Positions 7,856 through 58,278 of a stretch of 64,000 nucleotides of DNA are shown in pieces (the stretch's first letter is position 1; each line of letters begins with the position of its first letter). The notes below the pieces were generated by a model that worked only from the letters and a program-made list of their open reading frames with translations, was not told where the DNA came from and ran no database searches. The translations under genes were made by a program, and so were the position numbers. Source of the stretch: a virus (lineage: Duplodnaviria > Heunggongvirae > Uroviricota > Caudoviricetes); the IMG/VR virus record IMGVR_UViG_3300041407_000207, positions 52,090 through 116,089 of that record; one strand, given 5' to 3'.

Positions 7856-7894
7856 CTCTCGATAGCTCAGCAGAGTAAACTACTCTCGATAGCT
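7856..7894 (+). repeat. 12-bp direct repeat CTCTCGATAGCT x2 flanking CAGAGTAAACTA
   Basis: Copies at 7856-7867 and 7883-7894, 50 bp upstream of the terminase start. Confidence 0.6.
7871..7882 (+). promoter_or_regulatory. candidate late-promoter element CAGAGTAAACTA
   Basis: Identical 12-mer at 51410-51421 upstream of the other isolated plus-strand fibre gene. Confidence 0.4.
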
Positions 7895-7901
7895 ACCAGG
7901 C

Positions 7902-7911
7902 CTTTAAACTG
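7902..7911 (+). promoter_or_regulatory. candidate late-promoter / leader element CTTTAAACTG
   Basis: Identical 10-mer at 57431-57440 upstream of phoH. The related TTAAACT occurs at 58272-58278. Confidence 0.35.
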
Positions 7912-7916
7912 AGATT

Positions 7917-9614
7917 ATGACTGACAAGATAACTACCCTTACACGGGCACAATTGGCGACCGCGATCCTAGAGATCAAAGGTAAGCCTCTCTCATTTAAT
8001 GAATACCTACCGTTCATCGACGTTTACGATCAGTATCCGGATGAGATGGTTCTGAAGTGTGGTCGTCAGGTAGGTAAATCGGTATCTCTATCCGGTGCTC
8101 TGGTTTCTAACAGTGCTTCTGTCCCTCACTTCAACTCTTTGTACATTGCTCCTCTCAGCCAGCAGACGAGTCGTTTCTCAACGGGATACCTCGACACCTT
8201 CATGGAGTCCCCGTTGCTTCAGAAGTACTACCGAGACACTAACTCTCGGAAGAACGTCTTTCAGAAATCGTTTAAGAACAAGTCCACGATCTATTTGGGG
8301 TATGCGGAGACCGAGGCTGATGCCGACCGTATTCGAGGCGTCAACGCTGACTTGCTCTGCGTGGATGAAATCCAAGACGTCAGCTTTGATGCCTTACCTG
8401 TTTTGTACGAAACCCTCTCTGCATCGGATTACGCATATAAGCGTCTTACCGGAACTGCCAAGACAGAGAACAACACTCTGGAGTTGAAGTGGAGAGCCAG
8501 TAACCAGTGTGAGTGGGTAATGAGGTGTGATGGATGTAGTCGTCATATTGCTGCTTACGACTACGAAACCTGCATGAAGATTCTCGAGCACAAGGACGGT
8601 CCTGGTTGTCCTCACTGCGGTCACACCATCGATGTAACCAAGGGGAGTTGGGTTTCTTTCAATCCAGAAGTTACTCGTAGCATTGGCCTGCATATCCCTC
8701 AGTTCATCATCGGGGCTCGAACCAAGCCTAAGAAATGGCGAGAACTGCAAGACAAGCTGACGATGTACAACCCTCAGAAACTTGCAAACGAGGTCTTTGG
8801 ATTAGCAGCGGGTATGGGTGGTAAGATTCTTACCCAGCGAGAAGCGATGCTTTGCTGCAATCTAGAGAAGACCGCCTTTGACGATCAGTGGCCGGTAGAT
8901 GACCGTGGTATCTTGCAGATTGCTCTCGGCGTTGACTGGTCTGTAACTTCAGCGTCTAAGTCATACACCATCATCACGGTAGTAGGGACGAATATGCTGG
9001 GTAAGATGTTTCTCCTCTACTCGGAGAGACTTAACGGTGTTGATATCCTGGACCAAGTACGGCATGTAATGTACATAGCCAGAAAATTCAAAGTTCAAAT
9101 GATCGCCTCTGACCGAGGAGTCGGGGTTCTTCAATGCCAGCTTCTTCAAAATGAACTGGGCAGAGATGTAGTTCAGCCAATTAACTACGTCGCATCTAAA
9201 GCGGCTCTTCGCTGGGATGGCATGGGCCAATATTTTGCGGCAGACCGTACGATGTGTATCGATTCGGTTATCATGAAGATGAAGCTTGGCAAAAACAGCT
9301 TTGAGACTCCGTCTTGGGATGTCACTGCTGGATTCTGGAGAGACGCTCTCAGCGTCCATGAAGAAGAGACTCGTGCAGGACGCCGTATCTATTGCAAACA
9401 TCCAGATATTCCAGATGATTGGTTGCACAGCGTTGTATTTGCTAATATCGGCTTGATGATACTTCGAAAAGAGTTCAAGTATATAGAAGCTCTCGAAGTC
9501 GGCACCAATATCCCACAAGCAATTTTCGCAGGTGGCTATGCGGATAAAGATGCGTGGGGCGCAGGAGATGACGACGACACTATGTTCGGTGGTCTCGGGC
9601 GTGAAGACTATTAA
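7917..9614 (+). CDS. terL: terminase large subunit, 565 aa
   Basis: Walker A KCGRQVGKS. Walker B LLCVDEIQD. C-terminal nuclease-like region. First gene of the late operon. Confidence 0.85.
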   Translation: MTDKITTLTRAQLATAILEIKGKPLSFNEYLPFIDVYDQYPDEMVLKCGRQVGKSVSLSGALVSNSASVPHFNSLYIAPLSQQTSRFSTGYLDTFMESPLLQKYYRDTNSRKNVFQKSFKNKSTIYLGYAETEADADRIRGVNADLLCVDEIQDVSFDALPVLYETLSASDYAYKRLTGTAKTENNTLELKWRASNQCEWVMRCDGCSRHIAAYDYETCMKILEHKDGPGCPHCGHTIDVTKGSWVSFNPEVTRSIGLHIPQFIIGARTKPKKWRELQDKLTMYNPQKLANEVFGLAAGMGGKILTQREAMLCCNLEKTAFDDQWPVDDRGILQIALGVDWSVTSASKSYTIITVVGTNMLGKMFLLYSERLNGVDILDQVRHVMYIARKFKVQMIASDRGVGVLQCQLLQNELGRDVVQPINYVASKAALRWDGMGQYFAADRTMCIDSVIMKMKLGKNSFETPSWDVTAGFWRDALSVHEEETRAGRRIYCKHPDIPDDWLHSVVFANIGLMILRKEFKYIEALEVGTNIPQAIFAGGYADKDAWGAGDDDDTMFGGLGREDY

Positions 9615-9650
9615 CTCTAAGCCTAAAATCTAACTAGAAGTGAGACATAG

Positions 9651-10157
9651 ATGAACAACGATTTTGATTTTCCAGAACAAGAAGCTAAGCCGGTTCCAAA
9701 AAAGACGAAAGGTACTAAAGCAGAGAAAGAAGTTGCTGCGGAACCCGAGGTGAATCTTCTCGAAGGAGGATCTCCAGAATTTGACGAAGCTGATCTGGAA
9801 CAGATTTTTGATGCCCTCATGTTCGACGGTTCGTATACCGAAGAAGTGAAAATCGGTAAACGTCTTTCGATAACCCTAAAGACTCGTACTGGCAAAGAAG
9901 CCCGTGAAGTTATGACTCTTCTCGATAAAGCCGGGTACAGCCTAGGCCTTACCGTAGAAAGCATTCGTGGTCTCTACAACCTAGTTCAGTCGGCCATGAT
10001 CGTAAATGGCAAGGATATCTCCGGCGAACGATTCGATAAGAAACTAGAGCTCATTGAAGAGATGCCTACTCCAGTAATTTCTGCAATGATGATCGCACTA
10101 GTTAAATTCGACCGTAAAGTAGAGGCCTCCGTACGTCACGGCGAAGAAAATTTTTAA
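9651..10157 (+). CDS. hypothetical acidic protein (scaffold-like?), 168 aa
   Basis: ORF with a ribosome-binding site. Acidic N-terminus. Confidence 0.4.
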   Translation: MNNDFDFPEQEAKPVPKKTKGTKAEKEVAAEPEVNLLEGGSPEFDEADLEQIFDALMFDGSYTEEVKIGKRLSITLKTRTGKEAREVMTLLDKAGYSLGLTVESIRGLYNLVQSAMIVNGKDISGERFDKKLELIEEMPTPVISAMMIALVKFDRKVEASVRHGEENF

Positions 10158-10186
10158 AAAGACCCTGGGCAGTACAACGAACCCGG

Positions 10187-10519
10187 ATGTATATGTCCGG
10201 GCTCGAAGTTCCGGGCCTAGGGTCGGTAAAGGATCGAGTACTTCGAAGATTCATGGACCATGAAATTCGAAGAAAGCTTAAGTCAGAGCAGATAACTTGG
10301 ACTATCGCTTATCTGGCGGCTGGGGAAGAAAACAAAGATACTTTGAAGAAACTATGGGCCGAGTTGGTTGACCTAGAGTTTGGTGGAGAAGTACCTATGA
10401 AGCCTATCCAACCAGAAGACGCAGATGAAGTCCGTTGGCTGAAAGAGTATGAAGCCATGAAGGCTAGAGATGTAAGACTGGTTCGTAAGGACGGCGTACT
10501 TAGCGTCCAGGGCCTTTAA
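10187..10519 (+). CDS. hypothetical protein, 110 aa
   Basis: ORF in operon polarity. Confidence 0.4.
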   Translation: MYMSGLEVPGLGSVKDRVLRRFMDHEIRRKLKSEQITWTIAYLAAGEENKDTLKKLWAELVDLEFGGEVPMKPIQPEDADEVRWLKEYEAMKARDVRLVRKDGVLSVQGL

Positions 10520-10540
10520 CCTTAGTAAAGAGTACCCTCT

Positions 10541-13500
10541 GTGAACTTGTTTCAAACTACTGCGAACGTCGGTAATAACTCCTTTCAGGACCCTCTGAAC
10601 CCCTTCAACACAACTCAAGGTTCCTGGGGCATTGATCCAACGTATCTCACTCCGAGCTACGCTGCACCGTATCGTCCTCAGTACCAGGGTCCACAGGGGG
10701 CTCCACCCCCAAATAATAACGTAGGATACGGAACTTCTCTGTACAACGTATTCACTCCATTCGGCGAAAGTCGGATGTATGGTGATACTGTCCAGCAAGA
10801 AGGTCCGTACTACTCCGCTCTTGCGTATAAACCTACAGATAACGCTGCGTGGGGTCTTCAACGAGGAATAGTTCCGGCCCTAGCTTTCGCTGCGGGTATG
10901 AAAGCTTCTTCCATGAAGGTCGCTTCGAATAGTGCTGCATATTCTGCAACCATGCATTCTTGGAGAGTTGCCACTGGCATGGCTCCGTCCATGGCTGCAT
11001 CTGCTTCTGCAAAAATAGGTATCGGTGCCAGAGTAGGTTCTTCGGTTGGACAGGGTCTTTCAAGAGGACTTACCGGAGGCCTCAGTGCTGCCGGAGTAAA
11101 CGTAGGTGCCAGGGCTGCTGGCGGACTAGCGGGTGCAGCAGGTTTAATTGGGGCAGGTGCGGGATCCCTTGCACTTCCACTGCTTATTGGTCAAGGTCTT
11201 AGTACGGTGGCCGATGAAGCGGTATTCGATCCATACTCGGCCACTCGATCTGGAGAGCAAAGTCTTCGTGCAAACTTCAGCCATATCATGGCAGGCCGAG
11301 GTGCTAACGGTAACTCGGTTACTGGTTTTGGGTCGTCTAGAGAATTCGCATCAGGTCTTTCTTCTAGACTGACCACCTCGAGTATTAAGGACATGAGCCT
11401 TGATACCTACGGAATGAACGACCTTACCGATATGGCGTCTAGGTCAGGTCAACTGGATGATGTTCAGTTAGAGCAACTTGAATCTCGCATGAAGAAATTG
11501 GCTAAACAAGTCAAAGTCATGATGCGTGTTGCCAACGAACCAGACTTCCGTGCAGCCATGGAGATGATGGCGGAACTGAAAATAGCAGGTGTGAGTGCAA
11601 ACACCGCAGGTAAAGTTCTGCAGAACATTGGTGGCTCATCAGCTATCGCAGGCATCTCTGCTCAAAAAATGATGAACACCGTTGGGGCTCAGGGTCAGTA
11701 CATCTATCAGAGTAACAACCTAACTCCATACATCGGTCAAACTCAGGCAGCACAGACTTACGGTGCGTTCTCTTCTGCATATCGCATGGGTCTTGTCGGA
11801 GATGCGACTATGGCCAAATTTGGTGGAAGAGAGGGGGCTACTCAACTTGCCGTTACCGGTCAAGTTAACGCAGCTCAAACTCCGTATAACCAAATAATGT
11901 TGATGAACCAGACCTTCGGTCGCGGTAATCAAGGAAGCGTCGTAGGAAACCTTTCAAGCTTTGGTCAGATGGCTGCAGCAGATCCTTTGGCGGCGGCAGG
12001 GGCCATGGGCATGTACGAAGGGGAGATGACCAGTAAACAACTGATGGAGAAAGGTCCGGGTGCAATCCTAGATCAGCTCAAGCAGATTTCTGGATCAATT
12101 CCTGGAATGCAAAACAAGGATGGTCAAATTGATGTGGAAAAAGCATTCCTGCTAATGACTCGTCAAATGGGGCTTCCGGAGATGGAAGCTAAAGCTGTTT
12201 TGAAAGAACTACAGATTTACGGCAAACAAGGCGCTAGAGACCAGATGTCTTCAGCTCTGAAAGGAAACATGCAGAGAGATACCATTAAGTTCTTAGAACA
12301 AGAAGGTATGGGCTCTGGTCGAATAAACAAACTCACGCTACCTATTAGAACTGCTTGGAAAGACTTTAAGGCAGGGGGAGCAGGTATTGTAGGTGATGTT
12401 CTCGAAGGAACTGGTGGTGTTGGGGATAGCATAGAGAACTGGGTCACCAACGCAAGATTTGGATCTTTGACCGAAGGGCTTGAAGCCAAGACTTTCAAAG
12501 ACTTCTCAGGAGAAGATGATCCCACCACCAAAGCATATGAACTAGAAGCTTCTAACGGACAGATTGCTAAAAAATGGTTTGCTAAATGGCCAGGGTCTTG
12601 GGGTGCTCAAGGTGCTTACAAGCTGGCTACTGGAAAGGACCTTATCGAAAATAATGTCGAAGCTATTGACTCGATCAATCGGTTGGTTAAATCCGGTGAC
12701 AAAGATGCTCGAATGGTTTCCGATCCAAATGCTACTCCTGATAAACGTAAGAAAGCTCTCGACAATCTGAACGCGGAAAATAAATTAAACAGGTTTTTTT
12801 CCAATACGGAACTCGATCAACTTTCCGGCCAGGTTCTTAACTCCGGAACTGTTGCAATAGAAGACGCTGGTCCGGTAACTAAGGCAGACAAAGTTCGTAA
12901 GGGAGTTACTGATTCGGTAGGTAAAGACGTAGATATGCTGAAGGGCATTTCTATTCTAGAAGCTGCTCGTAAGGTATCTACTGGTCAAGGGGACGCAGAA
13001 AGCGAGAAGCTGCTGCGAGATGTTTACGGTAAAGATTTGAACCGTACGCAGCTTAGAGAGAAATCCATCGATGTTTATAAAGCCTCTGCTCTCAACGGGG
13101 TAGCCCAACTGCCGAGCATGATGAACGGTAAATCTGCGGAAGATCTGGATAAAGCTGCACGGTCAGGAAGTACTAGTGAATTCGGCCCCGCAGCACCGGA
13201 GCTTAAGGCTGAGATCAAACGAATAGAGTCTTCTAATCTTTCTTCGGAAGAAAAGAAGAAGAAAATCAGTGAAGCTATTTCATTCTACCGCTCCAAAGCT
13301 ACTGGGATAGGTTTCTCTGCTACTTACGATCCTAAAATTCTGAGTGATAACAATCTGTCGGTTGATACCATTGATAAGGGCCTGGAAAGTTCCCGTGAGT
13401 TGTCTAAGCAGACTCTACAGATCAATGCGCTGGCGTCTCAGGGGGTTATCAACTTTGATACCAAGTACAGTTCTTTGGCAGCTCTCGATTTGACTAAAGC

Positions 13501-13639
13501 GGTAGATACTTTCGGAGAGTTTGTAGCGAAGCTTGACAGTGTAGCAGATAAATTTGAAAGAGCTGCTCCGGAGCCATCTACTAGTTGGTTTGATTTCGGA
13601 TCTAAAAATCAGAAGTCAGAAACTACGGGTAATAAATAA
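10541..13639 (+). CDS. large virion-associated protein, 1032 aa (Gly/Ala-rich N-terminal third, coiled-coil middle)
   Basis: GTG start. Position right after the terminase. Composition typical of portal-fusion or internal virion proteins. Function not assignable by eye. Confidence 0.5.
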   Translation: MNLFQTTANVGNNSFQDPLNPFNTTQGSWGIDPTYLTPSYAAPYRPQYQGPQGAPPPNNNVGYGTSLYNVFTPFGESRMYGDTVQQEGPYYSALAYKPTDNAAWGLQRGIVPALAFAAGMKASSMKVASNSAAYSATMHSWRVATGMAPSMAASASAKIGIGARVGSSVGQGLSRGLTGGLSAAGVNVGARAAGGLAGAAGLIGAGAGSLALPLLIGQGLSTVADEAVFDPYSATRSGEQSLRANFSHIMAGRGANGNSVTGFGSSREFASGLSSRLTTSSIKDMSLDTYGMNDLTDMASRSGQLDDVQLEQLESRMKKLAKQVKVMMRVANEPDFRAAMEMMAELKIAGVSANTAGKVLQNIGGSSAIAGISAQKMMNTVGAQGQYIYQSNNLTPYIGQTQAAQTYGAFSSAYRMGLVGDATMAKFGGREGATQLAVTGQVNAAQTPYNQIMLMNQTFGRGNQGSVVGNLSSFGQMAAADPLAAAGAMGMYEGEMTSKQLMEKGPGAILDQLKQISGSIPGMQNKDGQIDVEKAFLLMTRQMGLPEMEAKAVLKELQIYGKQGARDQMSSALKGNMQRDTIKFLEQEGMGSGRINKLTLPIRTAWKDFKAGGAGIVGDVLEGTGGVGDSIENWVTNARFGSLTEGLEAKTFKDFSGEDDPTTKAYELEASNGQIAKKWFAKWPGSWGAQGAYKLATGKDLIENNVEAIDSINRLVKSGDKDARMVSDPNATPDKRKKALDNLNAENKLNRFFSNTELDQLSGQVLNSGTVAIEDAGPVTKADKVRKGVTDSVGKDVDMLKGISILEAARKVSTGQGDAESEKLLRDVYGKDLNRTQLREKSIDVYKASALNGVAQLPSMMNGKSAEDLDKAARSGSTSEFGPAAPELKAEIKRIESSNLSSEEKKKKISEAISFYRSKATGIGFSATYDPKILSDNNLSVDTIDKGLESSRELSKQTLQINALASQGVINFDTKYSSLAALDLTKAVDTFGEFVAKLDSVADKFERAAPEPSTSWFDFGSKNQKSETTGNK

Positions 13640-13851
13640 TGTCGGGTAATGAACCTAAGATAGTTAACAGATTGATAGCGATGACTCCGAGAGAGATTTA
13701 TCTCCAACGAGTCAAAGCTACCTATGATGCATTTCGCTATAGCGCCGTTGGTAAAGATTACATCCCACCAAGCTTCGGCGGACTATTCGGCCAACAAGTA
13801 ATGGTCAGCAGCCCCAATATTCTCGAGCTAATCGAGTTTGAGTCCAACTAA
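13639..13851 (+). CDS. hypothetical small protein, 70 aa
   Basis: taATG coupling on both sides. Confidence 0.4.
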   Translation: MSGNEPKIVNRLIAMTPREIYLQRVKATYDAFRYSAVGKDYIPPSFGGLFGQQVMVSSPNILELIEFESN

Positions 13852-15323
13852 TGTCTAACGTAAGTAATCTGAGAGATACCGTAGGCGGAGCGGTGTCTTA
13901 CATCGGAACCGCAAAAGATACTGCGGCAGGGATGCTGAAAGATCCTCTCGGAACCCTTACCGGAAACAAGGAAGCCGCAGGAGGATCTGGTTCGTCGGGG
14001 TCAGGTACCATTCCACAATCAGAACGTGCATTTACTGTACGTCCTAGATCTACGCCTATTGATAACGACAATAAATACACTGCGAATCGTGGACCTATTG
14101 CATCTATCAAACTGATGACTGATAAATCTAGTTCTGAAGTTTTGAGTGCTATCACTTCGGGTAACGCTCCTACTTCTGGACAAGGTCTAGACTCAGTAGC
14201 CAACTCTCTTCTGAGTGATACTGGCTATACTGATTTCCTGCTTACGAACGTAGACGTGGCTTTTAACGAAAAAGTCCAGATCAATGAAGTGTTCGGAGAT
14301 TCTGAAGTAGTCTACTACTTCGGTCGAAGCCCCGTGCAGTTTAACTTCTCAGGTCTATTGTTCGACGACGTTGATAACAACTGGTTCTACCGGTTCATGG
14401 TGGCCTACTGGGGTATCCTTCGAGGAACTCAGATGGCTAAGAACCACCAGTTGGCACAGATCAATCTTCCGAACATGACTATCGTAGGCACTATAACGGG
14501 AATCAGCTATCAGCAAGATGCATCTCGAGATACTGACATTAGATTCAACATGCAGTTCTTGGCCAAGTCTATTGTTCCAAGACCTGTATTGCTTCCTTCT
14601 GAGCTATTGAACAACGATGCTTTGAAGCTGAACATCAAACAGGCAGAAACCCCGGCTAGATTCCAAGACGTAGCTTCGATAAACAATATCAAAAGAAACG
14701 TAGAAAGTGCCAAGGCATACCTCGGGTCTACCATAGGTAAAGCTGATGGGTTCATGGGGGATGTAGCTTCAAACATCGAGGGTTTTGCCGGAGGCGTCAA
14801 TGACGCAATTGGCGGAGCAATCGGTGCTGCCAGAGATTTCTTTGACAGTAACGTCGGAGGATTTCTATCGGTAGCTAGTTTGAGAGCGAACCTTATCGCA
14901 CCGGTCTATGGAGTTCTTACTACCCTTACGAAAGTAGTGAAGTCCATAACTGGCCAAGTGTTGTCTCTGTTCAACACCGGTAGCTCTTTTGTAGGAGATA
15001 TCCTGAAAGATATTCGATCGATATCTAATGAAGCTATCTCTCTGGTGAATGCCATAGAAGGAGGCATCAATGATATTGTCGGATCTTTTGAAGCTGGGGC
15101 CAACGACTTAAGGCGAACCATACAATCCATTAAAAATGCTGTCGGAGCAATAACTCGTTCTCCGGAAAACATTTCTAATATCCTGAAACGTCTATCTAAG
15201 ACTGGCCATAAGGCTGGTTACATAGCGTCCCTTAAATCAGGTCGAAGATCGGCAGCCAGGGTCGCTCTAATCAATTCTGGATCCCCGTATAATTCTGGAT
15301 CTGGAGCAACTCTCTCGGGATAA
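13851..15323 (+). CDS. virion structural protein, 490 aa (Gly/Ala/Ile repeats in the C-terminal half)
   Basis: Operon-coupled long ORF. Confidence 0.45.
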   Translation: MSNVSNLRDTVGGAVSYIGTAKDTAAGMLKDPLGTLTGNKEAAGGSGSSGSGTIPQSERAFTVRPRSTPIDNDNKYTANRGPIASIKLMTDKSSSEVLSAITSGNAPTSGQGLDSVANSLLSDTGYTDFLLTNVDVAFNEKVQINEVFGDSEVVYYFGRSPVQFNFSGLLFDDVDNNWFYRFMVAYWGILRGTQMAKNHQLAQINLPNMTIVGTITGISYQQDASRDTDIRFNMQFLAKSIVPRPVLLPSELLNNDALKLNIKQAETPARFQDVASINNIKRNVESAKAYLGSTIGKADGFMGDVASNIEGFAGGVNDAIGGAIGAARDFFDSNVGGFLSVASLRANLIAPVYGVLTTLTKVVKSITGQVLSLFNTGSSFVGDILKDIRSISNEAISLVNAIEGGINDIVGSFEAGANDLRRTIQSIKNAVGAITRSPENISNILKRLSKTGHKAGYIASLKSGRRSAARVALINSGSPYNSGSGATLSG

Positions 15324-15326
15324 TAA

Positions 15327-16193: not shown

Positions 16194-16196
16194 TAA

Positions 16197-18623: not shown

Positions 18624-18820
18624 TGGCCACTACATACACTACAGATACTGGCGTAGACCAGACTTCTAAACTACCTACGGGAGTTGCCTCATCCGGCAAT
18701 CTCTCGGGTACCTCTGACGCTTTGACTTGTTTTAGGGAACAGCAGTTCTCACAAAAACTACAGGTTTTCCTGGTCAGCTACGTCATGTCGGTTAGCTCTC
18801 CTTACGCGGTTTATAAGTAA
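18623..18820 (+). CDS. hypothetical small protein, 65 aa
   Basis: ATAATG-type coupling on both sides. Confidence 0.3.
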   Translation: MATTYTTDTGVDQTSKLPTGVASSGNLSGTSDALTCFREQQFSQKLQVFLVSYVMSVSSPYAVYK

Positions 18821-28169: not shown

Positions 28170-28195
28170 GTCAAGTTAAAATTCAGTAAGACCAA

Positions 28196-30885: not shown

Positions 30886-30895
30886 GGTCGTAGAC

Positions 30896-51365: not shown

Positions 51366-51395
51366 ACAATCTAATTAGAATCTTTCTCAATTTAC

Positions 51396-51403
51396 TTATA
51401 CCA
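51396..51403 (-). promoter_or_regulatory. extended -10 box TGGTATAAGTA (divergent from the plus-strand late element at 51410-51421)
   Basis: Motif family. Confidence 0.45.
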
Positions 51404-51409
51404 GGTTGT

Positions 51410-51421
51410 CAGAGTAAACTA
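51410..51421 (+). promoter_or_regulatory. candidate late-promoter element CAGAGTAAACTA
   Basis: Identical to 7871-7882. 22 nt before the ATG at 51444. Confidence 0.4.
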
Positions 51422-51443
51422 GGCAAATACGTCAAATTATTTA

Positions 51444-53663
51444 ATGAGGAACTTCTGCGTGTCCACACCAATTCTCCAAGACCCTACTTCTGAATTTCAG
51501 CCAGTAGAATTCTACACTGATAAGGACCCCTACTACTATGTCATAGATAACCGTCCGTTACGGAATCTAGACGCGAACATTGCCCAACTGGCAGGTAGTC
51601 TCGATGGCGTTAGTAGATCTGTACTTACAGAAGCAGTCGCAGCCTCGGCAGAAGATGCAGGTCTATACAAAGTAGGGACTAAGACCCTAGGCCTAGAAGC
51701 ATTCCAATACTCAGAAGGGGTGTTCTCCCTAACCCCAGGGGTCCTGTTTCAGTCCGCATCAATAAATTCCGGAGATTCTACCCAAGTACTCAAAAAGGCT
51801 TCGTACCCAGTCTCCACTGCTATCAGTGTCCCAAACACGGTAACTTCCGGGAAAGAACGTAATTACCTCATTCAGGTTCGACTGGTTGACGGTGGTGATG
51901 GTAACCCCTCGTTTTATGACGATGGTACAAATCCTACTACTGCACAAACTTTATTTAATGGCAAATTAGAGGTTGCCGCAGTAGCTGGCTCTGACGCGAA
52001 TATCGGCTCCGCTACCGTACCCGCTGTTACTTCTGGCTGGATTCCGATGTACGTTGTGAAGCGGACTTTCGGCGTAACCGACATGGCCATTTCATCTCAC
52101 GTAAACGCCCCTCCCCGAGCTACTTTGGCTAATGGCACTGCGGTAGAAGGGGTAGTCGTAGAAGCCACTGCCGCAAGGACTATCACGGACGCAGACGCAG
52201 GGTCCTTTATCACAACTACTAGTAGTTCTTCAGTAACTATTACTATCCCTGCTCAGGCCGTAACGCCTTGGGCTGATTCCACTGAAATATTTGTGGAACA
52301 ACTTGGCACCGGTCAAGTTACTTTCGTAGGTGCTAGTGGGGTTACTATCCGGGTTCCAGTAGGATCGGTGGCATCTTCCGCAGGACAATATTCAGTAATG
52401 AGGTTGAAACGTACGGGCCTAAACACTTGGACCGTATTCGGAGATATCGTCCGTGGTGTTCATAACGGTGAAAATTTAGTAACGAACTCCGCGTTCCTAA
52501 CCAGCGGGCTTCTGTACACGTTTTCCAGCGCTAACGGTACTTTGTCGTATGTAGATGCTACTGATGGATCGGTCCCAACTCCTTGCCCCGTAACTAGAGT
52601 TGCAGTTTCTACAAAACTTACCGCTGGAACTTTGGCATTCTCGCAATTTCCTTTGAAAAACGGGAGTACTACTATACGAGTGAGTCCTTCCGAAGTACTA
52701 GATCTTTCTATCTGGGCATGTGTTACTGGCGGAGCTGCTAACTCTGCACGAATGGTAGTGGTGGAGAGTACGCCAGACGGTACTTTTATAGCGAACACCC
52801 GAGTTCTTGCCTACAACAACACCGTTGGGGGCTGGCAGCAACTCTCCGGTTCTATTACTGTTTCCGCTACTACTGGGCTAATTTCTGTTGGTATGTGGAA
52901 CGAGTCTTCGATGCCGGCTGGTGGAGTTATTTATTACGGAGAGCCAGCGATTACCCGTCGAAACTCCTCTATCGCTATTCTTCAAACTACAAAAGCCCCG
53001 GTTGCTAACCCTAGATTTGTAACCGGTTCGGTATCTATCTCCGCCACTGCGGGTCAAGAGCCTCTGCCGGTACTGACTTCTGGGTACACTTCAGGACTTT
53101 CAGGATATAACACGGTAGGTCCTTCCGGCAGCCCGTTGACTCAATTTTGCGCACAAGGATATAGTTTTAGTACCGCAAACTTCGGGCCTGCGTTCATCGG
53201 AGCGAGATCACAAGGGACTTACGGCGCCCACGGGGCAGTCTCTGCAGGTAGATCTTGTTTGACTCTGATGGGGGAAGGTAGTGACGGCACTAACTATCAA
53301 CCAGTAGGTCGTATAGATTTCTATGCAGACGCAACTCCTACTTCGACAAGTTCACCCGGTAGCGTTCAGATTCTTACCACTCCAGTTGGTGCAGTACGAC
53401 CAGCTATTGCGGCCACGTTTGCTAGCAATGGTGCTTTAGCCGTAGTTGCAGGCGCTTCATTCGGTGGTTCGGTAGCTATTACTGGTGGGCTAACAGTAAC
53501 GGCCCCATCCCAACTAGGTCAGTTCACCTTGACCACCCTACCAAGTGCTTCAGCATTCAACGGATACATAATTGATGTGACAAACGCAACTGGCGGGGCT
53601 AAAGTATGTCGCTCTAACGGAACTGTTTGGCAAATCCTTAACACTACTACTACTGTGAGCTAA
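51444..53663 (+). CDS. Ser/Thr/Gly-rich tail fibre or tailspike-like protein, 739 aa
   Basis: Beta-rich low-complexity composition typical of fibres. Conserved-looking N-terminal 150 aa. Confidence 0.5.
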   Translation: MRNFCVSTPILQDPTSEFQPVEFYTDKDPYYYVIDNRPLRNLDANIAQLAGSLDGVSRSVLTEAVAASAEDAGLYKVGTKTLGLEAFQYSEGVFSLTPGVLFQSASINSGDSTQVLKKASYPVSTAISVPNTVTSGKERNYLIQVRLVDGGDGNPSFYDDGTNPTTAQTLFNGKLEVAAVAGSDANIGSATVPAVTSGWIPMYVVKRTFGVTDMAISSHVNAPPRATLANGTAVEGVVVEATAARTITDADAGSFITTTSSSSVTITIPAQAVTPWADSTEIFVEQLGTGQVTFVGASGVTIRVPVGSVASSAGQYSVMRLKRTGLNTWTVFGDIVRGVHNGENLVTNSAFLTSGLLYTFSSANGTLSYVDATDGSVPTPCPVTRVAVSTKLTAGTLAFSQFPLKNGSTTIRVSPSEVLDLSIWACVTGGAANSARMVVVESTPDGTFIANTRVLAYNNTVGGWQQLSGSITVSATTGLISVGMWNESSMPAGGVIYYGEPAITRRNSSIAILQTTKAPVANPRFVTGSVSISATAGQEPLPVLTSGYTSGLSGYNTVGPSGSPLTQFCAQGYSFSTANFGPAFIGARSQGTYGAHGAVSAGRSCLTLMGEGSDGTNYQPVGRIDFYADATPTSTSSPGSVQILTTPVGAVRPAIAATFASNGALAVVAGASFGGSVAITGGLTVTAPSQLGQFTLTTLPSASAFNGYIIDVTNATGGAKVCRSNGTVWQILNTTTTVS

Positions 53664-53665
53664 TA

Positions 53666-54028
53666 ATGGCACTTATCGAACGAAACAGAGATTATGAAAT
53701 TCTTATCCGGATTAGCGAAGATGGTTCCGTAGGTTCTCACTACGTTTCTATCACCGAAATCGTAAAGGACGGTGTGGTAATTAACGCCTCCCTATCTCAA
53801 CCAATTGCTTTGGGTGAAGTAGGTGGGACTACTCTGAATGACAAGCTCGGGGAAATATCTGCCAATACTTTGATTTCAAATGCTAGCCTAACCGCTCAGG
53901 TTGGAGTGCTTACTTCTCAAATCGATGATCTAGGAGATTTGCTTAAGAAATCAGAGAGCGACTTGGAAGAAGCAGAAAATGAAATTTCTAGGCTACAAGG
54001 ATTATTGAACGAATCTCTAGAAAACTAA
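53666..54028 (+). CDS. small coiled-coil protein, 120 aa (possible fibre chaperone)
   Basis: TAATAATG coupling. Confidence 0.4.
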   Translation: MALIERNRDYEILIRISEDGSVGSHYVSITEIVKDGVVINASLSQPIALGEVGGTTLNDKLGEISANTLISNASLTAQVGVLTSQIDDLGDLLKKSESDLEEAENEISRLQGLLNESLEN

Positions 54029-54029
54029 A

Positions 54030-54062
54030 AGAAAAGCCCCGAATTAACGGGGCTTTTTTATT
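54030..54062. terminator. bidirectional rho-independent terminator
   Basis: aaaagaaaAGCCCCG-aattaa-CGGGGCTtttttatt. Confidence 0.65.
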
Positions 54063-54070
54063 ACTCTAAC

Positions 54071-55819
54071 TCACGCCGCCATAGGAAGAGATTCCGTCAG
54101 GTTTGTACGCAGCGATGTCATCGTCGCTTCCGAGAGGACTTGACTGTTACGCAGCACACAGTTCAAATCCCCGTTGTAGCCGACCGGCTTACCTTCGACG
54201 AGTTCATACTCGTTGTCTTGATCGAGTTCAAGAGACAACCAGCCTTTCGCAGACTTTTTGCCAGGGTCGGTCTTCGGCGCTTTGTAGACGTCGATCTTCA
54301 TGTTGCCTACTTCGCCATAGGTGAGCTTCATTGCGAAGCCCAACGAATCTCGAGTCAGGTACTGGAGACTGTAGCTGCCTACGCCTACCACGATGTTTTC
54401 CGCAGAGAAGCCCATTTCCATCAAACGTTGCAGAATTGCTTCGAAACGCTGGATGGTGATGGAGTCGCCGTAGATCATGCGGATGTGTGGGTCCAGGACT
54501 TTGAAACCCTTGGAGTTCACAGTGCCGCCGAATACGTTCCACAGATGTTGGACAGTACCGGTCTCTTCTACCGTGGGAGTGGTAGGTTCGAACTGAGTTA
54601 CTGTTTTGCCGTCCATGTAGTAGAACTGTCTGTCTTTGCGGTTCCATTCGATGGAGACGGTGTAGCGATACACTTGACCTTTCCAACGAGCCAGGCCAGA
54701 AACTTCGCTTTCGCCATGCTGGCCGTGTTCAGTTTCGTCTTGGACTTTTTCAGTAACGTAGTCCAGTACCCAACCGCTAGCGTGTTTCTCAGTCTCGGCT
54801 TCATCTCCGATTTCAAAGATTTCAGCGGTTCCGCAGATCACTTCGATAGGGACGCCAGTATCCGGACGAACTACGAATGGGCCCCCTTCACGAGCCATGA
54901 TCTTGTCTTTGAGACGAGGCAGGGCGTATTCCAGCATGCCGTAATAGTCGTAGCTGTCCATAACGAAGCTGATGGGGCCGACGTTGTCCAGGTAGTCAGA
55001 TAGGAAGGCAATTTCTGCTTCCAGCAGTGAACAGCCACGAACAGCTGCGATCATCTGAATGTTGAGGGTGGTTAGAGAGTGCTCGGTGGCCATGATCGAA
55101 CCGAAGTCCGCCTTGGTTGCACCGTACTCATGCATTGCAGCCAAGCAGCCAGGGATGTTATCCGAACCACTGAACGCAGCCAGGAAAGGAGCACCAGTTT
55201 TGTAGCCAGCAGTCATCCCGGTAAGTCCCCGGAGACTGAAGTCGTGACACTGGTACTTAACGTAGCCATTGTCGTCTGCAGTCAGTGCTGCGTACTTCTC
55301 AGCAACGATGCGGTATTCACGAGCAGCAGTGGCTACGGTACTTGGATACCACAGCTCGTTACTGAAGTGATCCTCCATGTAGCTTGCAAGCCACGCAAAG
55401 TCGTCATGCGTGTTGGTCACCAGCATGATCGGGGTGTTTGCTTTTACTACTCGGCCTTCTTCTACTGCATGGACTTCGATAGGCAAATAGCCAAGAGCGT
55501 GCAGATCCGAAAGACGAGTGAGGTCTGCGTTCGGAATGGTCGCCTCGATCAATGGCCGAATCACTTCTTCAACTTCGTCCCACGAGTCTTCGAAGAACAA
55601 GTTCCAAGCATGGTTGATAGCGCACATCCCCTGGAGAATGCCCGCTGCGACGATCTTACCGTCGTACATCGAGCTGCCTTGGAAGTGCTTGGTATTTCGA
55701 GGAGTAAAGTTACCTTGACCCTTCGTGTAGCCTTTTGGGTACAGACCTGGGTGACAGAACTTGTAAGCGTCACAGAGGATGGCTGCGTACAGTTTTGCTG
55801 GGGGGGTACTCATTCGCAT
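54071..55819 (-). CDS. nicotinamide phosphoribosyltransferase-family enzyme (Nampt/NadV or the NARP1 Namat variant), 582 aa
   Basis: MDSYDYYG and VVRPDTGVP match Nampt VSDSYDIY and IIRPDSGNP. IRMIYGDSITIQRF...VGVGSYSLQYLTRD matches LRVIQGDGVD...FGSGGALLQKLTRD. C-terminal KAPKTDPGKKSAKGWLSL matches KDPVADPNKRSKKGRLSL. Confidence 0.85.
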   Translation of the reverse strand: MRMSTPPAKLYAAILCDAYKFCHPGLYPKGYTKGQGNFTPRNTKHFQGSSMYDGKIVAAGILQGMCAINHAWNLFFEDSWDEVEEVIRPLIEATIPNADLTRLSDLHALGYLPIEVHAVEEGRVVKANTPIMLVTNTHDDFAWLASYMEDHFSNELWYPSTVATAAREYRIVAEKYAALTADDNGYVKYQCHDFSLRGLTGMTAGYKTGAPFLAAFSGSDNIPGCLAAMHEYGATKADFGSIMATEHSLTTLNIQMIAAVRGCSLLEAEIAFLSDYLDNVGPISFVMDSYDYYGMLEYALPRLKDKIMAREGGPFVVRPDTGVPIEVICGTAEIFEIGDEAETEKHASGWVLDYVTEKVQDETEHGQHGESEVSGLARWKGQVYRYTVSIEWNRKDRQFYYMDGKTVTQFEPTTPTVEETGTVQHLWNVFGGTVNSKGFKVLDPHIRMIYGDSITIQRFEAILQRLMEMGFSAENIVVGVGSYSLQYLTRDSLGFAMKLTYGEVGNMKIDVYKAPKTDPGKKSAKGWLSLELDQDNEYELVEGKPVGYNGDLNCVLRNSQVLSEATMTSLRTNLTESLPMAA

Positions 55820-55830
55820 TGGGCTACTCC

Positions 55831-56670
55831 TTAGTAGTTTTCACGGGTTACGTTGAGGATACGGAGGTTACCTTCGCCTTGCAGCTCACGATGGTAACTG
55901 TTGGTGGAGATTACTTCGTCGTAGATACCGGTAACGACGGCAGTCCCCTTGGAGAACAGACCGTGGGTCACTGCCAAGCTTACCGAAGCAGCGCCCTGTT
56001 CTTTCAGGGAGTGATACAGCGGCACGAATGTACCGCAGCCATCACCGATATCATCCAGGACCAGCAGAGTACGACCTTCGACAGTATCGTTGACCCGGGT
56101 TCCGGAGATAGAACCAGTTGCGAGGTCACGAACCTTGGTGCAGTGAATTACGCCAGCCGCACCTACTTTTCTGGCGAACGATTCCGCCTTCTTAGCAGCA
56201 CCACCATCTGGAGCTGCGATATAGACTTCACGCCACGAGGTATAGATATCACGGAAGATATCGAACTGGGTCACAACTTCCAGGCGGTTGAACAGAGCCG
56301 ATGTAACCTCGCTGTGAGGGTCCAGGATCTTCACGCTGGCAAAGTTACAGGCGTTGATATGCTTAGCCACCACGGCGATGCTGAGAGGCTCACCTGGGTT
56401 GCAAACACGGTCTTGTCGGGCGTATGGCATGTACGGGATGAAGGCAGAGACGTCTGCACGAGGATAGACTCGACGAACAGCGTCCTCGATAAACAGCAGG
56501 TTCAAGAGATCGCCCTGAGTAGTGAGTCGAGCTACAATTTCGACCGACTCTACTTTCTCTGGATAGAGACCTCCGTCCTGGATTTGAGGAACTACTTCAC
56601 CACCTGGAAAGTGAATGTAGGTGATTTCTTCGGTGCAGTTGCCTTTGCGCAGATAAATAGTGCCTTTCAT
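55831..56670 (-). CDS. ribose-phosphate pyrophosphokinase-family enzyme (Prs, or the ADPR-pyrophosphorylating Adps variant), 279 aa
   Basis: IPYMPYARQDR (Prs IPYFGYARQDR). PRPP-binding loop LVLDDIGDGCGT (Prs LVDDMIDTGGT). Confidence 0.75.
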   Translation of the reverse strand: MKGTIYLRKGNCTEEITYIHFPGGEVVPQIQDGGLYPEKVESVEIVARLTTQGDLLNLLFIEDAVRRVYPRADVSAFIPYMPYARQDRVCNPGEPLSIAVVAKHINACNFASVKILDPHSEVTSALFNRLEVVTQFDIFRDIYTSWREVYIAAPDGGAAKKAESFARKVGAAGVIHCTKVRDLATGSISGTRVNDTVEGRTLLVLDDIGDGCGTFVPLYHSLKEQGAASVSLAVTHGLFSKGTAVVTGIYDEVISTNSYHRELQGEGNLRILNVTRENY

Positions 56671-57383: not shown

Positions 57384-57408
57384 TTTGTTTCCTCCTTTGC
57401 TAAAGTTC

Positions 57409-57416
57409 TTATACCA
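57409..57416 (-). promoter_or_regulatory. extended -10 box TGGTATAAGAAC
   Basis: Motif family. Divergent from the plus-strand element at 57431-57440. Confidence 0.45.
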
Positions 57417-57430
57417 GGTTCCGACCTGCG

Positions 57431-57440
57431 CTTTAAACTG
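57431..57440 (+). promoter_or_regulatory. candidate promoter/leader element CTTTAAACTG
   Basis: Identical to 7902-7911. Confidence 0.35.
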
Positions 57441-57469
57441 TAAATACCAGTATCTTTCCGAGGTGGTCT

Positions 57470-58228
57470 ATGAGCAGATATAAAACGCCAGAAACACGTC
57501 AAGCTAGTCGGAACAAGAAGAACGCAGGGAAATTCCCCGAATTGGTCGCCGGGCAGAGTGAGTTGGATGCTCATCTAGAGCAGCAGATGAACAAAATTCG
57601 GTTTGGACCCCTCCAAGGTCGAAATGCCAAACAGAATTTCATGATTCAGACGATAAAGGATAAGAGAATCTCCTTTATCATTGGCCCTGCCGGTACTGGT
57701 AAGACTTTCGTAGCTACTTCCATGGCTTGCGAAATGCTGGAAGCTGACCTTATTGAGAGGATCACCATCGTTCGGCCTATGGTGGGCTGTGAAGAAGAGA
57801 TGGGTTTCGTGCCTGGGACGGAATATGAGAAATACGCTCAATGGCTAGGCCCTTTTCTCGATGTACTAGAAGGTAAGTTAGGAAAAACCAAGGTTGCTTC
57901 CTATCTCAAGTATGGAAAGATCGTAGCCAGCCCCCTAATGACCATGCGTGGATCTACTTTCCGTAACGCAATGGTTATCCTGGACGAAGCTCAGAACACT
58001 ACTCCGGGCCAAATGAAGATGTTCCTGACCCGTTTGGGCGAAGGTTCTCGGGTAGTGGTAGACGGAGACCTTGAACAGTCAGATTTGCCGTACGGAAAAG
58101 ACAACGGTCTGGCCGATGCTCTTCAGAAAATGGAAAACTCTAACTCTGCAGGATTCGTAGAGTTCACTGAGGATGAGATCACGAGAGATCCACTAGTACG
58201 AGAAATCGTAATGGCATACCGCAAGTAA
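57470..58228 (+). CDS. phoH: PhoH-family ATPase, 252 aa
   Basis: Walker A GPAGTGKT. ILDEAQN. Confidence 0.75.
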   Translation: MSRYKTPETRQASRNKKNAGKFPELVAGQSELDAHLEQQMNKIRFGPLQGRNAKQNFMIQTIKDKRISFIIGPAGTGKTFVATSMACEMLEADLIERITIVRPMVGCEEEMGFVPGTEYEKYAQWLGPFLDVLEGKLGKTKVASYLKYGKIVASPLMTMRGSTFRNAMVILDEAQNTTPGQMKMFLTRLGEGSRVVVDGDLEQSDLPYGKDNGLADALQKMENSNSAGFVEFTEDEITRDPLVREIVMAYRK

Positions 58229-58231
58229 ATT

Positions 58232-58255
58232 AGGGGAGGCGAAAGCCTCCCTTTC
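58232..58255 (+). terminator. hairpin terminator
   Basis: GGGAGGC-gaaa-GCCTCCC-tttctct. Confidence 0.5.
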
Positions 58256-58271
58256 TCTATTCCGAATCCTA

Positions 58272-58278
58272 TTAAACT
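58272..58278 (+). promoter_or_regulatory. candidate promoter element TTAAACT
   Basis: 32 nt upstream of the TTG start of the helicase gene. Confidence 0.3.

Follow-up and report, generated by a model that had tools for sequence, protein, structure and literature searches.

Candidate promoter classes on opposite strands of a tailed-phage genome and the sigma factor encoded among its virion genes

Which element starts transcription of the plus-strand late units of this tailed phage, and is it read by the sigma factor encoded among the phage's own virion genes? The initial annotation of the 64,000-nt stretch of DNA analysed here (the window) proposed as late promoters exact copies of a 12-mer (CAGAGTAAACTA) or a 10-mer (CTTTAAACTG), sharing a TAAACT core and lying 22–37 nt upstream of start codons, with the phage sigma as their reader by analogy with T4 gp55. 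We re-examined the element, its counterpart on the minus strand (TGGTATAA) and the sigma itself (Table 1).

Table 1. Coordinates of promoter-like elements and associated genes in the window
Feature	Position	Strand	Remark
TGGTATAA box	3153..3160	-	
TGGTATAA box	5260..5267	-	
TGGTATAA box	7054..7061	-	
Mirrored TAAACT, leftward	7110..7115	-	AGTTTAAAGGC (7110-7120) is the reverse complement of GCCTTTAAACT (7900-7910)
Direct repeat CTCTCGATAGCT x2	7856..7894	+	Copies at 7856-7867 and 7883-7894; not conserved in relatives
Distal terminase TAAACT	7876..7881	+	Within 12-mer 7871-7882; second copy of a lineage-specific duplicated promoter unit
Terminase-proximal TAAACT	7905..7910	+	Read as -10; predicted start 7917, the A of the terminase ATG
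Large terminase gene	7917..9614	+	Heads long virion operon running to about 35558
TAAAAT in CCTAAAAT	9624..9629	+	Upstream of the 9651 gene, after the terminase gene
Sigma-70-family factor, 231 aa	18820..19515	+	Sigma-28-like; orthologue of Arash virion protein gp10
TAAAAT, then terminator-like hairpin	28177..28182	+	Before the 28243 fibre gene
TGGTATAA box	39140..39147	-	
TGGTATAA box	41182..41189	-	
TGGTATAA box	42505..42512	-	Directly upstream of Y-RNA-like genes
TGGTATAA box	51396..51403	-	Read as -15 to -8 element; back to back with fibre-gene TAAACT, 11 nt apart
TAAACT of isolated fibre gene	51415..51420	+	Predicted start 51427
TGGTATAA box	57409..57416	-	Back to back with phoH TAAACT, 17 nt apart
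TAAACT of phoH	57434..57439	+	Predicted start 57446, followed by Shine-Dalgarno GAGGTGG
TAAACT of SNF2 helicase	58273..58278	+	Between inverted repeat arms 58258-58267 and 58294-58303
SNF2-type helicase gene	58310..59782	+	Orthologue of Arash gp217
TGGTATAA box	63873..63880	-	

A hexamer at the heads of plus-strand units

The proposed words are present where they were described: the 12-mer is exact at 7871-7882 and 51410-51421, the 10-mer at 7902-7911 and 57431-57440, TTAAACT occupies 58272-58278 and CTCTCGATAGCT is duplicated around the distal terminase copy. Their common core is real, since an unbiased ranking of all hexamers, in the sense orientation upstream of plus-strand genes, placed TAAACT first (5 observed, 0.14 expected, p = 3.8e-7). 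TAAA[AC]T as a whole occurs seven times in 1,044 nt of upstream DNA, a count for which the window rate predicts 0.24 and composition-matched shuffles 0.94 (seven copies reached in 0/5,000), and TAAACT is depleted window-wide (17 versus 41 expected). The longer words, with mismatches allowed, were not enriched (8 matches versus 6.3 expected for the 12-mer, 6 versus 5.55 for the 10-mer). We conclude that the probable promoter element of the plus-strand late units is a -10-type hexamer, TAAA[A/C]T, rather than the 12-mer or 10-mer.

The original list of sites was accurate but incomplete, having missed the TAAAAT before the 9651 gene, a probable internal promoter 3' of the terminase gene, as well as the mirrored minus-strand copy and the TAAAAT at 28177, whose status as a promoter is ambiguous. 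The stated spacing also breaks down at the terminase, where the proximal hexamer ends 6 nt before the ATG; the distance to the start codon is variable, between 6 and about 80 nt, and most often 27–31 nt. TTTACT lies 18 nt upstream of the TAAACT of the isolated fibre gene, a cassette missing from the closest relative, and the phoH terminator (58233-58254) precedes the TAAACT of the helicase. The hexamer conforms to the ordinary TAnnnT rule.

Upstream of the terminase gene, TAAA[AC]T is the sole sequence conserved among eight related lineages. Its distance to the ATG, 7 nt in L112 and 6 nt in the other seven, implies a leaderless terminase mRNA. Seven relatives with 80–90% identical terminases lack the 12-mer, the 10-mer and the direct repeat that flanks the terminase copy; these are specific to this genome and cannot be upheld as the motif. 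A tandem duplication of about 27 nt, marked by the repeat, created the second terminase hexamer, the distal TAAACT being missing in L005 and L109–L114. The clade-wide late consensus is TAAAAT: the CTAAAAT upstream of the 9651 gene is kept in six relatives, in five of them as CCTAAAAT, which also stands upstream of gp2 of Salmonella phage Arash, and the phoH site reads TAAACT in the window versus TAAAAT at the same position in L006. L006 has an additional ORF in front of the helicase and does not keep the helicase TAAACT.

Across about 60 related contigs, TAAA[AC]T precedes the portal and RNA-polymerase genes, in some cases with TTGACA 17 bp upstream. Among 73 non-identical late sites (portal, beta'C and other late genes), collected with a pattern that itself fixed T1, A2, A3, A4 and T6, position 5 was A in 63 and C in 10, an A lay 7 nt downstream in 54, and TTG appeared at the -35 position. 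Some late loci have a perfect TTGACA-N17-TAAAAT, and seven other loci form a second class exactly 6 nt from the start codon; late promoters have no conserved extended -10.

Could TAAA[AC]T be no promoter at all, but a chance A-rich word or a translational or RNA-level signal by start codons? It does occupy the place of a ribosome-binding region before the terminase and the second gene, and in several relatives a transcript from the predicted start would lack part of that second gene's Shine-Dalgarno sequence. We nevertheless consider this highly improbable: the hexamer is confined to transcription-unit heads (divergent junctions and 3' of terminators) and missing before the many operon-internal genes, its distance to the start codon is variable, one subclade has TTGACn exactly 17 bp upstream, and chance is contradicted by the enrichment. 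Sequence comparison instead supports a TAAACT core that marks plus-strand virion-gene units and behaves like a sigma-70-family -10 element. Also well supported is a predicted start at the purine 7 nt downstream, in units that would comprise the terminase and ejection proteins, fibres, phoH and the SNF2 helicase; at the terminase this purine would be the A of the ATG.

An invariant box on the minus strand

The candidate minus-strand promoters have an invariant layout, TTCAA (-36 to -32)-N16-TGGTATAAG (-15 to -7), in which the box ends in ATAA and lacks T at -7, with T at -1 and a purine at +1; position -7 is G at 183 and C at 55 of 304 sites. The box is all-or-none, with no one-mismatch variants of TGGTATAA in intergenic DNA. 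Its reported absence from plus-strand units requires one qualification, a single plus-strand copy at 24473 that is gene-internal and missing in the close relative L066; Arash has 24 copies on the minus strand and none on the plus strand.

Both classes might be read by host RNA polymerase with sigma-70, TGGTATAAG acting as a strong extended -10 early and TAAA[AC]T as a weak late promoter dependent on a phage activator in the manner of N4 late genes; the phage's own sigma and polymerase would then serve just a small promoter set or a very late function. TGGTATAA agrees with the TGnTATAA portion of the extended -10 consensus, conservation of both boxes extends over phages of probably different hosts, as that of host sigma-70 specificity does, and some late promoters are perfect sigma-70 promoters. 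We judge this unlikely, because the early box, all-or-none and without T at -7, is unlike degenerate host sigma-70 promoters, TTCAA sits too far upstream for sigma-70 geometry, by one to two positions, and a very abundant virion polymerase, together with its sigma, would have no task.

The sigma factor and the phage RNA polymerase

The initial annotation was right that 18820-19515 encodes a sigma-70-family protein. It is a genuine three-domain factor with regions 2, 3 and 4 (Pfam Sigma70_r3, 30.9 bits versus a cutoff of 25.3; PHROG 351), and the T4 analogy is rejected, gp55 being small and region-2-only. Its best NCBIfam and PDB profile match is FliA/WhiG and the top Foldseek match of its AlphaFold2 model is Bacillus subtilis SigD, making the sigma-28 type its closest relatives, albeit with a family score far under the cutoff (40.7 versus 189.6 bits). 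Arash gp10, 41% identical, also matches FliA/WhiG best, and Arash gp196 matches RpoD/RpoS/RpoH. In region 3.0, E100, N101, Q103 and L104 are invariant or nearly so within the family; the extended -10-reading residues of sigma-70 (H455, E458) and of sigma-28 (R97) are not conserved in the window sigma. Orthologues of Arash virion proteins gp8 and gp12–15 flank the gene in a conserved block in 12/12 loci.

Sigma-28 promoters consist of (-36)TCTAAAG(-30) and (-15)GCCGATAA(-8) (PMC12784957), with an 8-bp element that ends in ATAA, an unconserved -7 and a -35 element whose first position is -36; the TGGTATAA box is in the same register. The words themselves differ. Two points argue against pairing this sigma with TGGTATAA: the arginine that reads the extended -10 is not conserved, and TGGTATAAG is also near the host extended -10 consensus TGnTATAAT.

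Evidence for packaging comes from Arash only. In its virion mass-spectrometry data, unique peptides numbered 128 for gp206, 40 for gp216, 38 for gp217 and 24 for the sigma gp10 (PMC10585845), with the caveat that the same proteome held clearly non-structural enzymes, those with two peptides being read here as contaminants. Arash gp206 comprises Rpb2 and Rpb1 N-terminal domains with the catalytic DYDGD motif, Rpb1 domain 5 is found in gp216, and gp217, the SNF2 helicase, is a virion protein in these data whose gene adjoins the beta' C-terminal half. The polymerase genes fall outside the window and were seen in a relative contig only; in all loci covering both genes (>50, including the close relative L063), the polymerase gene follows the portal gene. 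The genes for all components also lie downstream of TAAAAT promoters, so that polymerase synthesised from them could just as well act late. Arash gp196, which has its own canonical promoter (TTGACT-N17-TACTAT), is missing from the part of the peptide table examined (PMC10585845). Neither the window nor the examined parts of the relative contig yielded a second phage sigma, and the packaged sigma could therefore be the sole one in this lineage.

Which sigma reads which promoter

A TAAACT -10-like element at virion units and a genuine sigma survive from the original interpretation; the long words, the gp55 analogy and the link between sigma and TAAACT do not. That link is doubtful, as nothing ties the two together, the protein is sigma-28-like, its Arash orthologue is a virion protein, and the TGGTATAA register matches. 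A late sigma that, with host or phage core, reads TAAA[AC]T at its own operon and other virion units is a tentative possibility. The gene's place within a TAAACT-driven operon would provide positive autoregulation, the A at -11 and T at -7 of TAAA[AC]T are usable by any sigma-70-family region 2, no other candidate was found in the sequence covered, and a holoenzyme made late from TAAAAT-driven polymerase genes could act late. Against it, a sigma produced solely from a late unit can initiate late transcription only if the virion delivers it, in which case late genes would fire at time zero; sigma-28 promoters share their 8-bp layout with TGGTATAA; and the canonical TTGACA-N17-TAAAAT of one subclade fits a group-1-type sigma.

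Arash (OQ632216; PMC10585845) resembles the window in gene order around the terminase, ejection-protein block, sigma, SNF2 helicase and both boxes (minus-strand copies of TGGTATAA, and TAAAAT/TTAAACTA ahead of genes on the plus strand). It differs in protein identity (just 30–52%), in its second sigma, gp196, and in a terminase mRNA with a leader and Shine-Dalgarno sequence, where the window's is predicted to be leaderless. The Arash paper (PMC10585845) reports the virion proteome and lacks the words promoter and terminator, hence contains no promoter analysis. In phiKZ and AR9 (PMC7598289, PMC7824862), phage beta/beta' homologues likewise include a virion copy that serves early genes, and the beta' C-terminal gene is linked to an SNF2 helicase, but there are two enzymes, split into four or five polypeptides, whereas here a single beta-beta'N fusion is joined by beta'C and by one or two genuine sigma-70-family factors.

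The window phage would also share with N4 a packaged polymerase on conserved unusual early promoters and weak sigma-70-type late promoters, although its enzyme is of the multisubunit beta/beta' type and apparently paired with a sigma-70-family factor. The N4 virion polymerase, which transcribes early genes from unusual, highly conserved promoters, is single-subunit, recognises DNA hairpins and uses no sigma; N4 late promoters are weak and sigma-70-type. The T4 late promoter TATAAATA is read by gp55, which needs gp33 and the sliding clamp; a short -10-only word with a phage-specified reader is the likeness, but the late word here follows TAnnnT and, in some of the clade, is accompanied by a -35. 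The phiEco32 sigma gp36 redirects transcription between temporal classes. The SPO1 gp28/gp33-34 cascade does the same (PMC13401047). The sigmas of both phages differ in using host core, in not being known as virion components and in each being encoded in the temporal class preceding the one it activates.

The best model, to which we give about an even chance, has two sigma-70-type promoter classes split by strand, the packaged sigma reading the early one and another sigma the late one. The more likely reason for a sigma among virion genes is that it is packed with the phage RNA polymerase and switches on early genes in the next infection. Made late from the virion operon, it would be packaged with the two-polypeptide polymerase (beta-beta'N fusion and beta'C) and the SNF2 helicase, be ejected along with the DNA, and steer the polymerase to the minus-strand TTCAA-N16-TGGTATAAG promoters of early and metabolic genes, tRNAs and Y-RNA-like genes. 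TAAA[AC]T would then be read by the host's sigma-70 or by another phage sigma, RpoD/RpoS-like and akin to Arash gp196, and the back-to-back -10 boxes at divergent junctions would make early and late promoter occupancy mutually exclusive.

Phage clade, gene layout and notable loci

A near-identity DNA search against phage records returned no match to the window. The nearest isolate by protein similarity is Salmonella phage Arash (OQ632216; 180.8 kb), with a terminase 52% and a sigma factor 41% identical, followed by three Vibrio phages. A much closer metagenomic relative, IMG/VR contig UViG_3300046692_000144 (165 kb; terminase 90%, sigma 87% identical), was examined as four loci (L005, L006, L063 and L066). 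The window phage belongs to a widespread clade with genomes of ~165-190 kb, whose RNA polymerase is found in >50 IMG/VR contigs and whose sigma factor falls into at least 180 protein clusters (228-267 aa). The plus strand of the window encodes the terminase, a block of large virion proteins, the sigma factor, baseplate and fibre proteins, PhoH and an SNF2 helicase, and the minus strand RNase H, RNase T, Ro60, NAPRTase, a PRPP-synthetase-like protein, a phosphoesterase, tRNAs and small genes.

Positions of features in the window and in related genomes
Sequence	Position	Strand	Feature	Detail
Window	1843-3096	-	ThiF/E1-like gene	
Window	3473-4522	-	Prok-JAB gene	
Window	4536-5243	-	Prok-E2-like gene	weak match
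Window	7054	-	TGGTATAA promoter	
Window	7067-7916		region upstream of terminase	iterated TAGACAA-n-TTGTCTA palindromes; repeated AGAGCCT words
Window	7102-7329 / 7474-7701		inverted repeat	228 nt, 76% complementary
Window	7110-7115	-	TAAACT, mirrored	
Window	7296-7613		ORF spanning palindrome centre	probably not a gene
Window	7398-7436		palindromic centre	AT-rich
Window	7917	+	terminase ATG	
Window	9624-9629		TAAAAT	
Window	18667		TAAACT	within the gene preceding sigma
Window	18820-19515	+	sigma gene	231 aa
Window	24473	+	TGGTATAA copy	intragenic
Window	26565-27587, 28243-29202, 29212-30189		tail-fibre/tail-collar genes	three tandem paralogues; phrog_523, 1e-39 to 1e-44
Window	39143-40645	-	Ro60/TROVE gene	vWA_Ro60 8e-44, TROVE 1e-11
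Window	41810-41922	-	YrlA-like Y-RNA candidate	E = 8e-7, under Rfam gathering score
Window	42166-42305	-	YrlA-like Y-RNA candidate	E = 2e-4, under Rfam gathering score
Window	42505-42512	-	TGGTATAA box	directly upstream of Ro60/Y-RNA candidates
Window	51444-54028		isolated fibre gene and small ORF	own promoter
Window	54029-54070		terminator of fibre-gene unit	
Window	54074-56670	-	NAPRTase-family gene adjoining PRPP-synthetase-like gene	
L063 (relative)	9983-14487		beta-beta'N gene	two overlapping ORFs, 1118 and 383 aa
Arash (L004)	120656-121693 (30656-31693)		gp196 as annotated	start overlaps divergent ORF

Several loci stand apart from the promoters. The isolated fibre-gene unit is absent from the closest relative and looks like an exchangeable cassette. 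The E1, JAB and E2 genes (1843-5243) are predicted to make up a ubiquitin-like conjugation triad, and the Arash homologues gp246c and gp248c are labelled structural proteins by mass spectrometry. The NAPRTase and PRPP-synthetase-like pair suggests a phage NAD-salvage module, with a nicotinamide phosphoribosyltransferase (gp157c) and a nicotinamide-nucleotide adenylyltransferase (gp160c) as the Arash counterparts, and Ro60 with its YrlA-like neighbours looks like a phage-borne Ro/Y-RNA module. The inverted-repeat region ahead of the terminase may be a replication origin, a packaging site or an operator region. Each of the six metagenomic contigs compared there (L109-L114) stops 90-336 nt upstream of the terminase start, either at a physical genome end or where the large palindrome breaks assemblies.

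A conserved hexamer upstream of plus-strand units

The initial annotation had proposed a 12-mer and a 10-mer with a shared TAAACT core as late-promoter motifs of the plus-strand units, and every motif sequence it quoted, with the direct repeat at the terminase, was found in place. Enrichment belongs to the core: in an unbiased ranking of all hexamers, TAAACT came first upstream of plus-strand genes in sense orientation (5 observed, 0.14 expected, p = 3.8e-7), whereas the 12-mer and 10-mer were not enriched with mismatches allowed. Nor does the core recur at random at similar density; it is depleted window-wide (17 copies against 41 expected), yet is the top upstream hexamer. The wider pattern TAAA[AC]T occurs seven times in the 1,044 nt upstream of plus-strand genes, where 0.24 copies are expected from the window rate and 0.94 from composition-matched shuffles, and none of 5,000 such shuffles reached seven. 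The 2,272 nt upstream of minus-strand genes hold two copies in sense orientation. The TAAAAT at 9624 and the mirrored TAAACT on the minus strand had been overlooked. A generic scan for sigma-70 promoters and terminators revealed no enrichment.

Upstream of the terminase, TAAACT or TAAAAT is the sole sequence conserved between the window and seven relatives (terminases 80-90% identical). Its distance to the ATG is 6 nt in the window and in six of the relatives, and 7 nt in the seventh; the reported distance of 22-37 nt from motif to start codon is wrong for this proximal copy. No Shine-Dalgarno sequence was found upstream of the terminase in the eight lineages, and an Rfam search of the region gave chance microRNA-type matches alone. 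Among the terminase lineages compared, the window alone has the distal 12-mer and the CTCTCGATAGCT repeat, which are a local tandem duplication of ~27 nt.

At other unit heads, CTAAAAT upstream of the gene at 9651 is kept in six relatives, in five of them as CCTAAAAT, which Arash also has there, and TAAACT upstream of phoH is replaced by TAAAAT in the close relative. The fibre-gene site has no footprint comparison in that relative, whose genome is without the cassette, and the hexamer upstream of the helicase is not conserved in it. In Arash, 13 heads of plus-strand units have TAAAAT(A) or TTAAACTA 14-32 nt before them, and almost all of ~60 non-identical contigs have the hexamer ahead of their portal and beta'C genes. 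The TAAACT at 18667, within the gene preceding sigma, was rejected as a sigma-specific internal promoter because L066 of the relative reads TAAGAT there.

We aligned 73 sites on the hexamer; they were collected with the pattern TAAA[AC]T, which fixes T1, A2, A3, A4 and T6. At position 5, 63 sites have A and 10 have C; a pyrimidine precedes the hexamer in 64; and A stands 7 nt after it in 54 (five of six window sites), with T just before that position in 40. TAAA[AC]T has the form of a sigma-70-type -10 element, TAnnnT with a purine start ~7 nt downstream. TTG at -23 to -21 marks a -35 element at 17-bp spacing, perfect in one subclade (L038 and L044-L057; for example, TTGACA-N17-TAAAAT in L054) and TTGAGT in L063; at the window sites the -35 is weak or absent, the best being TTTACT, 18 nt before 51415. 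Distances from hexamer to start codon cluster at 27-31 nt, with a second class of exactly 6 nt in seven other loci. For the 6-nt class, the usual geometry makes the A of the ATG the start site, so these mRNAs are predicted to be leaderless. We infer, with good support, that TAAA[AC]T is a conserved promoter -10 element.

The minus-strand box, the sigma factor and the phage polymerase

A second box, TGGTATAA, read here as an early -10 element, occurs ten times in the window against 1.3 expected. Plus-strand units had been said to lack it, which agrees with nine of the ten copies lying on the minus strand; the exception at 24473 was rejected as a promoter, being intragenic and absent from L066. 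Arash has 24 copies on the minus strand and none on the plus strand. The box is all-or-none, with no one-mismatch variant in intergenic DNA, and aligned sites extend it to TTCAA at -36 to -32 and T-15 G G T A T A A-8, flanked (n = 304) by G at -7 in 183, T at -1 in 210 and a purine at +1 in 245. The promoters at 7054 and 42505 share 22 identical bases (TGGTATAACAATAGTGCGAGAG) and a similar AATTTCAA upstream, which suggests a duplicated promoter-leader unit.

At divergent junctions, late and early -10 boxes stand back to back, 11 and 17 nt apart in the window and often a single nucleotide apart in Arash (CTTATACC-C-TAAAAT), so two polymerases could hardly bind at once. Because the spacing from TAAACT to TGGTATAA differs between the two window junctions, we rejected the idea that CAGAGTAAACTA is simply a -35 element for the minus-strand promoter facing the other way.

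The product of the sigma gene had been described as a sigma-70-family protein with region 2 and a region-4 helix-turn-helix, and regions 2, 3 and 4 could all be identified. Region 3 (residues 108-140) matches Pfam PF04539 with 30.9 bits (gathering cutoff 25.3), a domain annotated in most of 120 homologues among the matches listed. Region 2 is not significant in Pfam alone; residues ~30-100 align to region 2 of SigA, RpoS and WhiG, and residues ~180-228 to region 4 of Aquifex FliA. The protein also aligns to regions 2-3 of SigA and RpoS and regions 3-4 of FliA, and matches a PHROG family of phage sigma factors. An AlphaFold2 model (mean pLDDT 74.7) matches sigma chains along its whole length, with B. 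subtilis SigD as top match and region-4 helices at 181-189, 195-202 and 206-230 (pLDDT >80). The best NCBIfam matches of the protein and of its Arash orthologue gp10 are FliA/WhiG, far under the curated cutoffs (TIGR02479, 40.7 bits against 189.6). By these matches it is a sigma-28-like member of the sigma-70 family outside the FliA/WhiG subfamily, with core binding and promoter specificity predicted. The analogy once drawn with T4 gp55 does not carry over: gp55 is a small region-2-only late sigma with a TATAAATA promoter, whereas three domains and the motif TAAA[AC]T are found here.

In all 12 loci examined, the sigma gene lies between orthologues of the Arash virion proteins gp8 and gp12-15. 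In the part of the Arash virion proteome consulted (PMC10585845), mass spectrometry found gp206 most abundant (128 unique peptides), with 40 unique peptides for gp216, 38 for helicase gp217 and 24 for sigma gp10; replication enzymes had 2 each, and we read these as contaminants. Packaging evidence for polymerase and sigma comes from Arash alone, a distant relative with contaminants in its proteome, and packaging in the window phage is presumed from it. gp206 is beta fused to the N-terminal half of beta', with the catalytic DYDGD motif, and gp216 is the C-terminal half of beta'. As expected of a virion RNA polymerase, the genes sit in the late/structural module, behind TAAAAT promoters, and the polymerase gene follows the portal gene in every locus covering both (>50, including L063). 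The two ORFs in L063, against a single 1525-aa fusion in Arash, reflect either a true split or a frameshift.

Arash has a second sigma factor, gp196, which resembles RpoD, RpoS and RpoH, fits TTGACn-N17-TAAAAT and is not among the virion proteins in the portion of the published table covered (PMC10585845). Its annotated start appears ~45 codons too far upstream; the shortened gene is preceded in five lineages by a conserved canonical promoter (TTGACT-N17-TACTAT or TTGACT-N17-TACTATAC), which suggests expression by the host polymerase. Profile HMMs found no gp196-type sigma in the window or in L005, L006, L063 and L066, which cover the relative contig in part, and that contig was not among the returns of an IMG/VR pattern scan for such a sigma. 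One weak gp196 match in L005, an ORF equivalent to window 4533-5315, is an E2-like protein of the E1/E2/JAB cluster and not a sigma.

These comparisons bear on which box the packaged-type sigma reads. Sigma-28 promoters have the form (-36)TCTAAAG(-30) plus (-15)GCCGATAA(-8) (PMC12784957), and like TGGTATAA their downstream element is an 8-bp box in the same register, ending in ATAA and lacking a conserved -7. The initial annotation had paired this sigma with TAAACT, a reading that we doubt and consider unlikely: the register of sigma-28 promoters fits TGGTATAA, late promoters of the form TTGACn-N17-TAAAAT fit gp196, and gp10 is a virion protein together with gp206 and gp216 in the portion of the Arash proteome consulted. 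Region 3.0 of the packaged-type sigma is moreover invariant or nearly so in the family, and an extended -10 is conserved in the early box only. Reading of TGGTATAA by this sigma has weak points. The window sigma has not kept the residues with which sigma-70 and sigma-28 recognise the extended -10, and TGGTATAAG also comes close to the extended -10 consensus of the host; a mainly host-driven transcription scheme seems to us improbable. One residue is inserted in the region 3.0 helix of the early-box subclade with TGTTATAA, but covariation between region 3.0 and early-box position -13 was rejected as evidence, as a single event fully confounded with phylogeny.

A proposed transcription programme

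A sigma and a polymerase packaged together must act at the start of infection, and the abundant early-type promoters are the TGGTATAA boxes. We propose that the packaged holoenzyme would transcribe the TGGTATAA units, that host sigma-70 or a gp196-type sigma would then transcribe the TAAA[AC]T units, and that the latter would encode the sigma, polymerase and helicase destined for the next particle. The full three-step model seems to us evenly poised between right and wrong; it is weakened by the negative search for a second sigma in the window and in the four loci of the relative. We advance tentatively, at slightly below an even chance, the proposal that a sigma-28-like factor is packaged with a two-polypeptide phage RNA polymerase and an SNF2 helicase and that, once ejected, this complex uses an invariant TTCAA-N16-TGGTATAAG promoter to transcribe all early genes. 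The two motifs exist and are conserved, and the proteins are identified; any mechanism past these points we infer.

The strategy resembles that of N4, which uses a virion polymerase early and weak sigma-70 promoters late. The likeness to phiKZ and AR9 (PMC7598289, PMC7824862) lies in beta/beta' enzymes of phage origin and an SNF2 helicase linked to them; a jumbo-phage review reports that no sigma factor is found in the phiKZ group. Neither "promoter" nor "terminator" occurs in the text of the Arash paper (PMC10585845), and our literature search found no paper describing such a pairing of phage polymerase with sigma.

No sigma factor is reported to accompany the multisubunit RNA polymerases known from phages (phiKZ, AR9), and known phage sigma factors use the host core enzyme. 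This clade joins a phage polymerase with sigma-70-family factors and two sharply defined, strand-separated promoter words. If the packaging proposal is true, the ejected complex would be the first virion-delivered, sigma-dependent holoenzyme and a link between bacterial RNA polymerase and the phage enzymes of phiKZ type, which lack sigma. The experimental system is simple, since Arash grows on Salmonella, and could show sigma sharing between, or specificity for, viral and cellular core enzymes, as well as the handover from packaged holoenzyme to late transcription. The promoter words are an immediate aid to annotating transcription units, leaderless mRNAs included, across the genomes of the clade.
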